Source: a phage. Taken from it: 64,000 nucleotides of DNA. The stretch's first letter is position 1, and the number at the start of each line of letters is the position of its first letter. This document shows, piece after piece, positions 39,236-52,639 of this stretch. Location of the stretch: the sequence record PZ386959.1; one strand, 5' to 3'. A program made the translations under genes and the position numbers. The notes beneath the pieces were generated by a model. It made no database searches. It was given only the letters and a program-made list of their open reading frames with translations, and had not been told where the DNA came from.

Positions 39236-40093
39236 ATGTCTAAAGTTGTTAAAATGAAAGCTCCGGTAGAGAAGTACAACGGTACTGAACGTCAAACTCT
39301 GCGTTACCTTCTGAAAGATGTCTGGTTTTATTACCTGAACACTTCACCACGTCCGGGAAAAGGTAAGTCCATTGATAAGAAATTCCCAGGCAAAGACTGT
39401 AACTACAGCGTTTCAATTCTGGCAGAAGATGGTAACAAGCTGTTTAAAGAGTTTACTAAGTCTAAGAAAAACCCAGAAGGTTGGGATAAAGTTACTACTG
39501 AAGCAGTTGATGCAGATGACTTCGAAGAGAAGTTTGGTTGTAAACCACCTTTTGAAGCAGACACTTACTACATCTTGAAAGTAAGTCGTGCAGCAGCTTA
39601 TAAAGACGGTGCTGTGTGGACAGCTAAACAGTCATTCCCTGTGATGCTGATTGAAGAAGTAAATGGTAAGCGTGTAGCTGTTAAACAGCCGATGAAGAAA
39701 ATCAAAGCTCAAGCATCTGATAAACATGAAGATGACAAGAACTATGATGTAATTCATCCAGATATTGCAGTCGGTAACGGTTCTTTTGGTAGTGTGATTC
39801 TTTCTACTCACTTCTACACTTTTGAGAACAATGTTCTTACAAAACCTATTCAGGAACAGTTTATCATTGATACCCTTGTACCTTACACTGGTGGTAACGG
39901 TGCTAATGGTGAACCTGAACTGGATGAAGATGAACTGGCTATGCTTGGTCTTGATGGTGTTGAAGATAACGGTGAAATCACTGAAGAAGATGCAACAGAC
40001 CACAAACCTTCTAATGCCTCTGATGATGGCGATGACGAAGACTTGCCAGACCCAGATGACGAAGAAGATGAAGACTTCGATACAGAAGACTAA
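39236..40093 (+). CDS. single-stranded DNA-binding protein-like (acidic C-terminal tail)
   Basis: Extremely acidic C-terminus (DDGDDEDLPDPDDEEDEDFDTED) as in phage SSBs (T4 gp32, T7 gp2.5); high-expression codon usage; good promoter and RBS upstream. Confidence 0.45.
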   Translation: MSKVVKMKAPVEKYNGTERQTLRYLLKDVWFYYLNTSPRPGKGKSIDKKFPGKDCNYSVSILAEDGNKLFKEFTKSKKNPEGWDKVTTEAVDADDFEEKFGCKPPFEADTYYILKVSRAAAYKDGAVWTAKQSFPVMLIEEVNGKRVAVKQPMKKIKAQASDKHEDDKNYDVIHPDIAVGNGSFGSVILSTHFYTFENNVLTKPIQEQFIIDTLVPYTGGNGANGEPELDEDELAMLGLDGVEDNGEITEEDATDHKPSNASDDGDDEDLPDPDDEEDEDFDTED

Positions 40094-40156: not shown

Positions 40157-41197
40157 ATGGAGAAGTACACATTAACAAAACTTCCAGATTCAGTTACACA
40201 TGTCTTTATTGACTCTGACAGCATTGCCTATAAAGGTGCTTGTGTAGTTGAGAAAGCAAAGTATAAATACGTTAATAAACTCACAGCAGAAGAATCTGAA
40301 CCATTTGATAATGCGAAAGATGCTGCAAGATGGTTAGCAGACCAGAGAATCCTTGTGGAAGAGCTTGGCCTGACATTTGATGAAGATGAATGGGAAAGAC
40401 AAACTTGGAAAGAAGCTAAGAGTGAAAAAGAAGCTATCATGGCTACTCAACAGGTGCTTCAGGAATGGCTTAAGATTGTTGGTAAAGAAAGAACTTGGGT
40501 AGGTTATTTAACAGAGAAGGGTGTGCATAAACATAAAGACATTAAAGGTCTTGAGCACCAATATCAAGGTAACCGTAAAGATGCCGTCACACCAACACAC
40601 TTAGTCGCTTGTCGTGAATACCTTTTATCCAGACCAGAGTTCAAGCTCTTAAAGGGGGGCTTCGAAGCCGATTCAATCGTAATTGCTAAAGCTGAAAATA
40701 TGGGTAAGAAGGCTGCTCTTATGAGTATTGACAAAGACCTTCGACAAGCTGAAGGAACTTATTGTATTGATATGACTTATGAAAAATCACCACTAATCTT
40801 TATTGCTGATAATAATGTTGGTGATATCTGGGATTGTCCTATCAAATCAAAACCAAAAGCTGCAAAAACAGTTGGTGTAGGTTTTAAATTCTTGTGCTAT
40901 CAGGCTGTTGCTGGAGATAATGCAGACAACTACTTCGGACTTAAAGGTGCTGGTAAAGTAGCTGTGATGAATGCTTTAGATGGTAAAGAGACCTACAAAG
41001 AGTGTCTTGATGCTATCTATGAACTTTATGCTAAAAAAGACTCTTATACCTATGTGTCATGGGATGGACAGACTGTTACAAAGACACCGTTAGAGTTAAT
41101 GGAACAGCATTTCTGGATAGCATATCAAGAGAGAAATCCAAAAGATAATTTCTCTTTTAAGAAATATAATTGGGAGCCGTGTATGAATGAAGATTAA
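40157..41197 (+). CDS. 5'-3' exonuclease / flap endonuclease
   Basis: N-terminal acidic motif VFIDSDSIAYKG and an H3TH-like segment VAGDNADNYFGLKGAGKVAVMNAL, both typical of FEN-family 5' nucleases. Confidence 0.6.
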   Translation: MEKYTLTKLPDSVTHVFIDSDSIAYKGACVVEKAKYKYVNKLTAEESEPFDNAKDAARWLADQRILVEELGLTFDEDEWERQTWKEAKSEKEAIMATQQVLQEWLKIVGKERTWVGYLTEKGVHKHKDIKGLEHQYQGNRKDAVTPTHLVACREYLLSRPEFKLLKGGFEADSIVIAKAENMGKKAALMSIDKDLRQAEGTYCIDMTYEKSPLIFIADNNVGDIWDCPIKSKPKAAKTVGVGFKFLCYQAVAGDNADNYFGLKGAGKVAVMNALDGKETYKECLDAIYELYAKKDSYTYVSWDGQTVTKTPLELMEQHFWIAYQERNPKDNFSFKKYNWEPCMNED

Positions 41198-41684
41198 AGG
41201 ATTTGGCAATTGCCCCACCTATGGTCATTGGGTATCTTTATGTGGGGAAGTTGACCCCACTAAACATTTTGGTTTTGTATATTTAGTATATTGTAAGAAA
41301 ACCAGACAATATTATATAGGGAAGAAACAGTTTAATAGCGTGACCAAAAGAAAAGTTGCTGGCAAGACTCGGAAGAAGGTAGTCACTAAGGAGAGTGATT
41401 GGATGACTTACGAGACTTCTTCTGAGTATATTAAAAAAGATATTGAGAGCTTTGGAAAAGAATTTTTTGACTTTTACATTATCCAAACCTACTACACGAA
41501 AGGTGGCCTAGTTTATGGTGAAGCAAACCTCCAACATAAATTCGATGTAATGACAAAAAGGATTGACTCTAAGCTCAGACTCTTCTACAATGCCAACATT
41601 GCAGCAATTAAGTTTATCACTAAAGAAACTTATGAGGATGCTGAAAAAAGAATCCATAAGGTAATGAAAGCAAATTGTGCTTGA
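41187..41684 (+). CDS. GIY-YIG-like nuclease (possible homing endonuclease)
   Basis: Segment FGFVYLVYCKKTRQYYIGKKQ resembles the GIY...YIG motif; small basic protein inserted among replication genes. Confidence 0.35.
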   Translation: MKIKGFGNCPTYGHWVSLCGEVDPTKHFGFVYLVYCKKTRQYYIGKKQFNSVTKRKVAGKTRKKVVTKESDWMTYETSSEYIKKDIESFGKEFFDFYIIQTYYTKGGLVYGEANLQHKFDVMTKRIDSKLRLFYNANIAAIKFITKETYEDAEKRIHKVMKANCA

Positions 41685-41690
41685 TAACTA

Positions 41691-41936
41691 TTGAGAGAGA
41701 ATAAAATGTTTAACAAAAGTAAAGCTGTGAGTCATGTAGCAAAAGTTGACAGCAAGATTGAAGAACTTGAGCGCATCCTTGCAAATGCCAGAGAGGCAAT
41801 AATTAAAGAAGTTGAAGCTGTTGAATCTCAAATGCAGCACCTAATGCTTAAACGTCAAGAGTTACGTGAGCATCTGGAATATATTGAAACACGAGAGCTA
41901 AAAGTTAACAGATTTTTAAGGAGTCCGAATGTTTAA
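41691..41936 (+). CDS. hypothetical coiled-coil protein
   Basis: 81-aa ORF; no motif recognised. Confidence 0.3.
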   Translation: MRENKMFNKSKAVSHVAKVDSKIEELERILANAREAIIKEVEAVESQMQHLMLKRQELREHLEYIETRELKVNRFLRSPNV

Positions 41937-42684
41937 CTCAAGAGAATCAGTAAAAAACTGGAATCTTCGTTGCGGAAACACCCAAAAGCAACCTTACAGT
42001 GATGAGTATTGGGAATCTTTGAAATCCCAGTCTCTGTGTATGCTTGAAGAAGCAAAAGAGCTTGTAAAAGCAATTGAAGAGAAAGACCCCATTGAGACAC
42101 TGGATGCTCAGGCAGATTTACAATATGTTCTTGACGGTTTGATTTACCTGTCACAACATGACCATAACGGTGCTATGGAAGCTGTTTGCCATAATAATGA
42201 CCTGAAGTACACAGATGACTATGAAGAAGCTTTAAAACGTCTTGCAGATATTGAGAAGCGTACTGGTCAAGAGTGTATTATCAGAATGTCAGTAGTTGAT
42301 GGTAAAGAATGGTATGCGATTGTTCGTGCAGCCGATGGGAAGATTATGAAGCAATCAAATCTCCCTAAAGTACAGCTTGGTGAATACATTGTAGAACTTG
42401 AAAGCCAAGAACTTTTTGTGGTAGTATCTGAGACATGCGTTATCTGCAAAGGTATTGTAGATAGCTTAAAGGATTTGGGTGTAGATGGTTTTGTAGAAGT
42501 TAATCCAATTACCTCTAAAGCAGATAAAGATTTCTGTAAAGAGAATGGACTATGGATTGCAGATATTGTCTACTATAATGGTGAGCAGTTCCATGTAACC
42601 TCATACCCGAAACTGAATTATGATGCTAATAACCTGAAGTGCTGGTTAAAAGGGGTTGGTTATAATGGATTCACAGAACATTAA
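41929..42684 (+). CDS. hypothetical protein with a possible MazG-like NTP pyrophosphohydrolase N-terminal domain
   Basis: N-terminal helical region with the EE..EL...E pattern (LEEAKELVKAIEEKDPIETLDAQADLQYVLDGL) loosely resembling MazG-type domains; weak call. Confidence 0.25.
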   Translation: MFNSRESVKNWNLRCGNTQKQPYSDEYWESLKSQSLCMLEEAKELVKAIEEKDPIETLDAQADLQYVLDGLIYLSQHDHNGAMEAVCHNNDLKYTDDYEEALKRLADIEKRTGQECIIRMSVVDGKEWYAIVRAADGKIMKQSNLPKVQLGEYIVELESQELFVVVSETCVICKGIVDSLKDLGVDGFVEVNPITSKADKDFCKENGLWIADIVYYNGEQFHVTSYPKLNYDANNLKCWLKGVGYNGFTEH

Positions 42685-52123: not shown

Positions 52124-52639
52124 ATGTACCTGTCAAACCTGAAACGTTCTGCTGCAATATCTGTTCTGAGACTAAGCTTTGAAGAGCGTCAAGAGTTCAT
52201 TGATTCTCACCAATATGACCCTTCCAATTCCAATCACATGATTCTCTGGAACCGTGATAACTTCCGTGAAAGAGCACTTGTCCGTTATTACCCACACTAC
52301 ACAATAGATAACCTGTATGAATGGTGTGTTGTGAAGAACACTATTGCAACACTTAACAATCTTTGCAGGTATACAGGCAAGCAAACATTTACACTAGGTC
52401 ACCACAAGCCTGTTACAAAAGGTGGTGAACATCACTGTGCAAACTGGTTTATCCAAACTAAAGCTGATAACCAGAAGCAAGGAGATAGACTCCTAAGCAT
52501 CCCTAAGATGACCTATGAAGAGCAAGAGAGATATATCAAAAATAATATGCCAGATGTGCTTGACAACAACTATACAGATTTGGCAATATCTCTCCTGTTG
52601 AAGTTCGAGACAGTTTATAGGGCAACTTACAATGGCTAA
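52124..52639 (+). CDS. HNH endonuclease-like protein
   Basis: Segment LGHHKPVTKGGEHHCANWFIQTKADNQKQG fits the HNH (His-Me finger) pattern H-H...N...H/N. Confidence 0.5.
   Translation: MYLSNLKRSAAISVLRLSFEERQEFIDSHQYDPSNSNHMILWNRDNFRERALVRYYPHYTIDNLYEWCVVKNTIATLNNLCRYTGKQTFTLGHHKPVTKGGEHHCANWFIQTKADNQKQGDRLLSIPKMTYEEQERYIKNNMPDVLDNNYTDLAISLLLKFETVYRATYNG

Follow-up and report, generated by a model that had tools for sequence, protein, structure and literature searches.

The 64,000-nucleotide (nt) stretch of phage DNA in sequence record PZ386959.1 (hereafter the window) comes from a Felixounavirus, a Felix O1-like member of the Ounavirinae, which shares 99.7% identity with Escherichia virus TH10 across 5 kb. 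Among the open reading frames (ORFs) of the window, the + strand ORF at 41187-41684 begins at an ATG and specifies a protein of 165 amino acids (aa), in which we find a GIY-YIG nuclease domain. Judged from its profile matches, predicted fold, distribution and divergence, the gene is best read as a tail-less descendant of the Seg-like endonucleases that has been vertically inherited and is translationally coupled to the 5'-3' exonuclease gene upstream of it. A sequence-only reading of the same DNA had correctly pointed out this ORF and its GIY-YIG-like motif (residues 28-48, FGFVYLVYCKKTRQYYIGKKQ) and had taken the gene for a free-standing, mobile homing endonuclease. The features on which our reading rests are the following.

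40157..41197, + strand: 5'-3' exonuclease (T7 gp6/FEN-like), 346 aa, the conserved upstream partner gene (PHROG 107, E=3.9e-63; weak Pfam match to 5_3_exonuc)
41172..41176, + strand: GGGAG, a Shine-Dalgarno-like ribosome-binding site within the exonuclease 3' end, 10 nt 5' of the GIY-YIG ATG (sequence)
41187..41197, + strand: 11-nt overlap of exonuclease stop and GIY-YIG start, read as translational coupling (ORF coordinates, sequence)
41187..41684, + strand: stand-alone GIY-YIG nuclease-domain protein of the SegE type (PF19835; PHROG 447), from matches in Pfam and PHROG, an AlphaFold2 (AF2) model and matches in BFVD
41271..41327, + strand: GIY...YIG core, G29-F30-V31-Y32 and Y43-I44-G45-K46-K47, with G29, F30, Y32, Y43, G45 and K47 invariant in 164 members
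41328..41396, + strand: basic beta-hairpin insert, residues 48-70, between YIG and the W72/Y75/S78 motif (AF2 strands E50-56 and E63-69)
41520..41591, + strand: catalytic-type Glu112 (41520-41522) and Tyr134-Asn135 (41586-41591), with E112 and N135 invariant in 164 homologues and in alignment A3
41625..41681, + strand: short C-terminal helix at the place where the NUMOD3 repeats of long relatives start (alignment A3)

The resemblance to GIY-YIG nucleases is far above chance. Residues 21-138 match positions 10-123 of the Pfam profile PF19835 (SegE_GIY-YIG) with E=4.9e-27 and 95.1 bits, against a cut-off of 25, and the protein matches PHROG 447 at E=1.3e-47, with weaker matches to two PHROG families named 'homing endonuclease'; NCBIfam and PADLOC gave no match to it. 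The core region aligns with 'FVYETTNLINGKKYIGK' of T4 SegE, and E112 and Y134-N135 align with the E and the 'YYN' of T4 SegE and SegD. A hidden Markov model (HMM) of the family reached T4 SegE at 2.5e-13 and SegD at 9e-11, I-TevI marginally, and T4 endonuclease II (DenA) without any meaningful match. The AF2 model of the 165-aa protein has a predicted local distance difference test (pLDDT) score of 78.7, and its three best matches in the Protein Data Bank (PDB) are all the I-TevI catalytic domain, although they are weak (E 0.19-0.49, template-modelling (TM) scores of 0.54-0.58 on target length); among the predicted viral structures of BFVD the matches are strong, and every one of them is a Seg-like or GIY-YIG protein. 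Searching the PDB by sequence, with the one protein as query, yielded nothing meaningful. PF19835 itself fits the short proteins of the cyanophages L004 and L005 over their whole length (E about 1e-55) and T4 SegE (L012 12058-12675) only in part (36.5 bits, positions 60-120), so that its SegE-based name is, to judge by these alignments, misleading about the core membership of the family.

Twelve residues (G29, F30, Y32, Y43, G45, K47, W72, Y75, S78, E112, Y134 and N135) are invariant in the short and long classes of relatives described below, which points to a nuclease domain that is probably catalytically intact and to a protein that would be enzymatically active. It is very basic and lysine-rich (isoelectric point (pI) 9.55). 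The hairpin at residues 48-70 carries 8 K/R against 1 D/E; it is kept in both the short and the long forms of the family and is absent from T4 SegE and SegD, where the HMM alignment has a gap, and it may serve in DNA binding. An H-W motif near the N-terminus (H14, W15) is also conserved in the family. An N-terminal zinc site formed by C9, H14 and C19 was considered and rejected, since H14 and W15 alone are conserved there and neither cysteine is.

A difference from homing endonucleases lies at the other end of the protein. A profile search of 1.84 billion representative proteins recovered 2,255 relatives at E<=1e-3, and the best 150 of them form two length classes, a short one of ~130-200 aa, which includes the window protein, and a long one of ~220-390 aa. 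All ten long relatives tested carry NUMOD3, NUMOD1 or helix-turn-helix (HTH) modules, the standard DNA-binding modules of homing endonucleases, C-terminal to the nuclease core. The window protein stops ~25 residues past its core, in one helix, and no DNA-binding tail domain was found in it (Pfam at E<=1 yields PF19835 alone); the helix is possibly a vestige of a lost tail. Long members such as P0016 and that of Vibrio phage D482 (326 aa) share with it the catalytic module, the H-W motif, the basic hairpin and the invariant residues, and differ in the NUMOD3, NUMOD1 or HTH repeats that follow the core. T4 SegE and SegD likewise share PF19835 and the motif layout (GIY...YIGK, Y-x-G/S-S, E, YYN), but with 205 and 223 aa they possess C-terminal DNA-binding regions, and they lack the ~23-residue basic hairpin insert. 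In a neighbour-joining tree, short and long forms are intermixed, with 42 state changes versus a mean of 56 after shuffling. Thus, tails were apparently lost or gained many times, and the gene probably descends from a homing-type element.

The distribution of the gene looks like that of a resident. We searched with a 1.5-kb query made up of the exonuclease 3' end, the GIY-YIG gene and downstream sequence, and 300 phage records matched. As many as 258 of these cover at least 80% of the query and must therefore contain the GIY-YIG gene; among the remaining 42 are distant phages of Erwinia, Hafnia and Yersinia, and in those sampled the alignable DNA lies mostly or wholly inside the GIY-YIG gene. 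No empty site at the exonuclease junction was found among the 300 records. By tblastn at >=80% identity, the GIY-YIG protein is present in 254 phage records and the exonuclease in 257, and gene order is unchanged in Mooglevirus, Suspvirus and Kolesnikvirus. SegE and SegD are sporadic among T-even phages, whereas the window gene was found throughout its phage subfamily. The sequence-only reading had proposed a comparison with related phages at this exact junction; its outcome, retention in all relatives examined and no presence/absence polymorphism, is the very one which that reading had named as counting against it and leaves a mobile insertion between the exonuclease and the downstream genes unsupported. 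In one record, that of Escherichia phage EC6 (L011 4495-4996), a frameshift splits the gene into two ORFs. As an adjacent small ORF of the same record is also frameshifted, the split is probably a sequencing artefact, and it was not counted as gene decay.

The gene has also been under strong purifying selection. For unsaturated pairs, the ratio of non-synonymous to synonymous substitution rates (dN/dS) is 0.035-0.066, as low as that of NrdA. The synonymous rate alone (dS 0.215 versus Salmonella phage SeKF_63) is similar to that of the flanking genes (0.11-0.18), which argues against a recent sweep. Compared with Erwinia phage M7, identity is 70% for the primase-helicase, 63% for the GIY-YIG protein, 57% for NrdA, 54% for the exonuclease, 46% for a protein resembling single-strand DNA-binding (SSB) proteins and 38-39% for MazG. 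The GC content of the gene (35.3%, the 5th percentile of the window) is below that of the window (39.2%); we found this unconvincing as a sign of foreign origin, the GC content of third codon positions (GC3) being ordinary and the protein lysine-rich.

The same junction does harbor a gene that behaves as a mobile element would. An insertion of ~490 bp is present in the 1.5-kb junction region of about a third of the sampled Felixounavirus-type records. In SeKF_63 (L002 3489-4004) it is a clean insert directly 5' of the GIY-YIG start codon, equivalent to ~41186 in the window, and encodes an HNH endonuclease (PF13392; PHROG 99, E=2e-70); the window phage has no HNH gene at the junction. The exonuclease 3' end bordering the SeKF_63 insert is visibly more diverged, like a co-conversion or immunity tract. 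At >=80% identity this HNH allele is found in 27 records only, often with extra copies elsewhere in the same genome, so other genomes with an insert may carry a different HNH gene. By its sporadic pattern the junction HNH gene appears genuinely mobile; the neighbouring GIY-YIG gene appears to be unlike it, a fixed and vertically inherited core gene of the Ounavirinae. Of the features tested that a homing endonuclease would show, namely a DNA-binding domain, a sporadic distribution and signs of horizontal movement, none was found, and on this comparative evidence the gene should not be classed as a free-standing homing endonuclease.

The association with the exonuclease extends beyond the subfamily. 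Adjacent exonuclease and GIY-YIG ORFs that overlap or abut were found in Erwinia phage M7, in a 90-kb metagenomic phage contig (L014, GIY-YIG protein 50% identical), in contig L013 and in roseophage DSS3_VP1 (Naomviridae). In the unrelated ~70-kb contigs L026 and L027, the order is exonuclease, GIY-YIG, MazG, and there the GIY-YIG homologue is long and NUMOD3-bearing; the long member P0016 occupies the same position. Several other metagenomic contigs end too soon for the neighbours of the homologue to be seen. Identity to the window declines in the same order for the exonuclease and for the GIY-YIG protein (M7 > L014 > L026 >= L013 > DSS3_VP1), which fits the long co-inheritance of a linked pair. 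In each comparison that includes the window, the GIY-YIG protein is better conserved than the exonuclease. The gene has thus diverged in step with the exonuclease, which does not favor the insertion proposed earlier.

About 400 cyanomyovirus records also contain a short homologue, of 144-153 aa (T4-like gene cluster 213). That of P-TIM68 (L004 3944-4378) lies just downstream of nrdA-nrdB, and that of S-SM1 is at L005 3926-4387. T4 denA (L012 37518-37952) directly follows nrdB and so has the same position as the P-TIM68 homologue; this could mark a positional and functional analogue or be a coincidence.

At the junction in the window, the TAA stop of the exonuclease ORF (41195-41197) lies inside the GIY-YIG gene. 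The overlap of 11 nt had been described correctly before but was offered as the pattern of a homing endonuclease, and short upstream overlaps of this kind are ordinary translational coupling in phage operons. In Citrobacter phage Michonne, a ribosome-binding site is annotated at the place equivalent to 41172..41176, and overlaps or tight exonuclease/GIY-YIG junctions are also seen in M7, DSS3_VP1, L014 and L026. The gene belongs to an all-(+) block that runs from a T7-type primase-helicase through a 285-aa acidic-tail protein, the exonuclease, the GIY-YIG gene, an 81-aa ORF and a MazG-like gene to NrdA. Its two nearest downstream members are as follows.

41691-41936, + strand: coiled-coil ORF, 81 aa, directly downstream of the GIY-YIG gene (weak coiled-coil-type Pfam matches)
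41929-42684, + strand: MazG-like pyrophosphatase, 251 aa (Pfam, PHROG)

The 81-aa ORF was considered as a split-off DNA-binding partner and rejected, as its Pfam matches are weak and of the coiled-coil type and it is poorly conserved (46-54% identity in Mooglevirus and Suspvirus, not detectable in M7). In the MazG-like protein, the Pfam PRA-PH match spans residues 25-85 only, and the C-terminal ~160 residues have no domain match. The 285-aa protein (39236-40093, + strand; PHROG 3877), encoded between the primase-helicase and exonuclease genes, ends in a strongly acidic tail (…DDEEDEDFDTED) and may be a single-strand DNA-binding protein like T7 gp2.5. Promoter and terminator scans around the GIY-YIG gene gave counts not above those in shuffled sequence. 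A sigma-70-like site (TTGACT-17-TACAAT, 10/12 matches) lies at 41563-41591 on the + strand, inside the 3' part of the gene and ~100 nt upstream of the 81-aa ORF; the regional count of such sites is not above that in shuffled sequence. No paralogue of the GIY-YIG protein was found in the window (phmmer and family HMM against all ORFs of at least 50 aa).

The sequence-only reading had counted an HNH-like gene at 52124-52639 as a second mobile-nuclease candidate. A weak HNH likeness does stand (PHROG 2214 'HNH endonuclease', E=2.9e-6, residues 58-123), but this + strand ORF has its best match in PHROG 3500, of unknown function, and no HNH match was found for it in Pfam, NCBIfam or PADLOC. SeKF_63 has a 516-nt ORF of the same length at the corresponding position, annotated as hypothetical.

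Published work on Felix O1-like phages narrows the function. In the genome-wide CRISPRi-ART screen of phage SUSP1, the orthologue agp056, 87% identical to the window protein, scored 0.50 (p=0.48, 'Not Fit'), while the exonuclease agp055, the SSB-like agp054 and nrdA were all 'Fit', agp054 (the 285-aa orthologue) having the highest score listed among agp050-agp061 (2.8, p=3e-7) (PMC11879866). The primase-helicase was also 'Not Fit', which indicates that the screen has false negatives (PMC11879866). Lysates of the 'superspreader' phages SUSP1 and SUSP2 keep host chromosomal DNA, with >30-fold more rpoS copies than T4 lysates, and the plasmids in them are intact (PMC5241400), which argues against bulk degradation of host DNA of the T4 EndoII type. 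Sensitivity to several restriction-modification (R-M) systems is remarkably high in the Felixounavirus phage Bas63 (PMC8594841). Phage DNA is hence presumably unprotected by modification, and an indiscriminate nuclease would endanger the phage itself. In a complete PHROG-annotated relative, in which many genes are hypothetical, no resolvase, endonuclease VII, RuvC-type or other non-HNH endonuclease is annotated. Our literature search found no paper linking Felix O1 with GIY-YIG; the Felix O1 genome paper treats HNH genes only, and the 2006 GIY-YIG phylogenomics paper does not cover the present short subfamily.

Given these constraints, we consider it about an even chance that the gene encodes a functional, non-mobile nuclease retained for the benefit of the phage, and less than that for any version naming a substrate. 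The protein would be translated from the early replication and nucleotide-metabolism block in coupling with the 5'-3' exonuclease gene that precedes it, and its N-terminal extension and its own basic beta-hairpin would make the contacts with DNA. As it lacks a domain for reading sequence, it would most plausibly act on DNA structure or context, nicking or cutting branched, nicked, recombination or replication intermediates, or the DNA of competing elements. At the resulting nicks or ends the partner exonuclease could enter, in loose analogy to gp6 of T7, the exonuclease that works with endonuclease I. Such a role would be helpful enough to be kept by strong purifying selection and dispensable in a laboratory knockdown.

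The comparison with T7 is one of function only. The replication module of the window is T7-like (primase-helicase, PolA-type polymerase and acidic-tail SSB-like protein), and endonuclease I (gp3) and gp6 likewise would correspond to a pair of an endonuclease and a 5'-3' exonuclease. The endonuclease folds, however, are unrelated. Gene 3 is also important to the growth of T7, whereas no effect was measured when the SUSP1 orthologue was knocked down (PMC11879866).

Several observations weigh against the reading of a vertically inherited, active partner of the exonuclease. For the short subfamily we infer activity, substrate and exonuclease partnership from sequence and context. At the place of the canonical GIY-YIG arginine (R27 of I-TevI) the 164 members show no invariant arginine, K47 being invariant and R62 being R or N; even the best match to a solved structure is a weak one, with E 0.19 and a TM score of 0.58 on target length; and residues 121-146, including N135, are modelled at pLDDT <50. 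Congruent divergence is not strictly incompatible with repeated homing to a conserved site in the exonuclease, and a location beside a conserved replication gene is also expected of a homing endonuclease that targets this gene. The pairing is not obligatory: no GIY-YIG homologue was seen in many exonuclease-bearing phages (Pakpunavirus, rV5-like and others), and the cyanomyovirus homologues lie near nrdA/nrdB and do not adjoin an exonuclease gene. A knockdown phenotype would also be expected if the GIY-YIG protein were the only debranching enzyme of the phage, and none was seen.

In its most far-reaching form, the retained-nuclease reading would make the exonuclease and GIY-YIG genes an ancient two-nuclease module of Ounavirinae, Naomviridae and other, uncultured phages, with stand-alone relatives of the GIY-YIG protein in hundreds of cyanomyovirus records. 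The tail-less GIY-YIG protein would then nick or debranch DNA in a structure-selective manner and would be the nuclease, so far missing, that resolves junctions or initiates recombination in phages without a recognisable resolvase, and thus a new functional class derived from homing endonucleases. We regard this as unlikely.

Among the alternatives, the least improbable, though in our view also unlikely, is a nuclease of genetic conflict that cuts the DNA of co-infecting phages, satellites or plasmids or counters host defence in the manner of ICP1 Odn. Strong conservation of a gene that a phage can do without in a laboratory host poor in defences is the usual signature of conflict genes, and there is precedent for the domestication of homing-endonuclease domains. 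HNH proteins of the HK97 gp74 type work with terminase, and ICP1 Odn is reportedly a domesticated, endonuclease-derived weapon against PLE satellites, which themselves are said to encode endonuclease-derived regulators. The likeness to these would be that a nuclease domain of homing ancestry is kept for the benefit of its carrier; they differ in fold or partner, and in our case both partner and benefit are putative. Conflict genes are, however, usually fast-evolving and strain-variable, whereas the GIY-YIG gene is among the slowest-evolving of its module. The protein also has neither a target-recognition domain nor a PADLOC match, and a position next to the exonuclease gene that is stable across several phage families suggests a housekeeping role.

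We rank next, as rather improbable, an active free-standing homing endonuclease that is fixed in the Ounavirinae and persists by excluding or converting rare endonuclease-less competitors. The protein shares its Pfam family with the Seg-type endonucleases, its long relatives bear the classic homing modules and the mixed tree makes descent from such an element probable. The adjoining conserved replication gene is a typical location for a homing endonuclease, several GenBank records read 'GIY-YIG homing endonuclease', and the knockdown is neutral, as for T4 seg genes. Set against this are the missing domain for target reading, the zero empty sites among the 300 related records, and a synonymous divergence like that of the flanks, with no recent sweep and with congruence to the exonuclease. 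Standard theory of the homing cycle predicts decay after fixation. The strong purifying selection over deep divergence, with 63% identity to Erwinia phages and thus above NrdA, runs counter to that prediction, and the mobile HNH gene at the same junction shows the sporadic pattern that would be expected.

Less probable again is an analogue of DenA that nicks host DNA for the exonuclease to degrade, the products feeding MazG, ribonucleotide reductase (RNR) and deoxynucleoside monophosphate (dNMP) kinase. Like DenA, the window protein is a small, stand-alone, non-homing phage GIY-YIG nuclease without a DNA-binding domain, encoded in a nucleotide-metabolism and replication block; it is dispensable in the laboratory, as denA is. 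The cyanomyovirus homologues just after nrdA-nrdB, where T4 has denA, and one metagenomic homologue in the order dNMP kinase, MazG, GIY-YIG also fit. The family HMM, however, shows no sequence relationship to DenA beyond the superfamily, DenA matching PF01541 and not PF19835. SUSP1 and SUSP2, with the 87%-identical orthologue, leave chromosome and plasmids largely intact (PMC5241400), and the R-M sensitivity of Bas63 suggests no obvious distinction between self and host DNA (PMC8594841).

A non-catalytic remnant that has lost nuclease activity, and whose fold would now serve in DNA binding or in a structural or regulatory part of, for instance, the exonuclease or the replisome, seems very unlikely. 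The variable arginine, the pI and the lack of a knockdown phenotype would suit it. The invariant residues, however, are of the catalytic type (Y32, Y43, E112, N135) and are shared with long relatives that look functional. The canonical arginine motif is likewise missing from T4 SegD and SegE in the HMM alignment, and both are active enzymes. Finally, the identity of an NAD synthetase, given by the label alone in many RefSeq, Pharokka and PHROG 447 entries, has practically no chance and is refuted by profile and fold: Pfam at E<=1 yields no NAD-synthase domain, NCBIfam is empty, the fold and all structural neighbours are those of GIY-YIG nucleases, and 165 aa are too few for such an enzyme.

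That label has spread from PHROG 447 via RefSeq and Pharokka to Felix O1-like and Erwinia phages, DSS3_VP1 and hundreds of cyanophages. It is unsupported by profile or fold, and the label 'homing endonuclease' is contradicted by distribution and architecture; together they affect >250 Felix O1-like genomes and hundreds of cyanophage genomes. Hundreds of public genomes already contain the gene under various annotations, so the object as such is not new. Modestly new are its recognition as a core, tail-less nuclease of the Seg clade linked to an exonuclease, the contrast with the mobile HNH gene, and the finding that both database labels are wrong or unsupported.

The contrast at a single junction between a fixed, selected, tail-less GIY-YIG gene and an HNH gene that comes and goes makes a useful case of domestication. 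Felix O1-like phages serve in diagnostics and in therapy, and among them are the 'superspreader' phages said to lack DNA-degrading endonucleases. According to the authors, SUSP1, SUSP2 and Felix O1 have no gene homologous to those of known hydrolytic endonucleases (PMC5241400). All three carry the conserved GIY-YIG nuclease-domain gene and several HNH genes. A conserved gene of this kind beside the exonuclease bears on that claim, which merits re-examination, while the phenotype of intact host DNA stands. Were the protein to prove, in a step beyond the present data, the debranching or recombination nuclease of Felix O1-like phages and marine cyanophages, it would fill a real gap.

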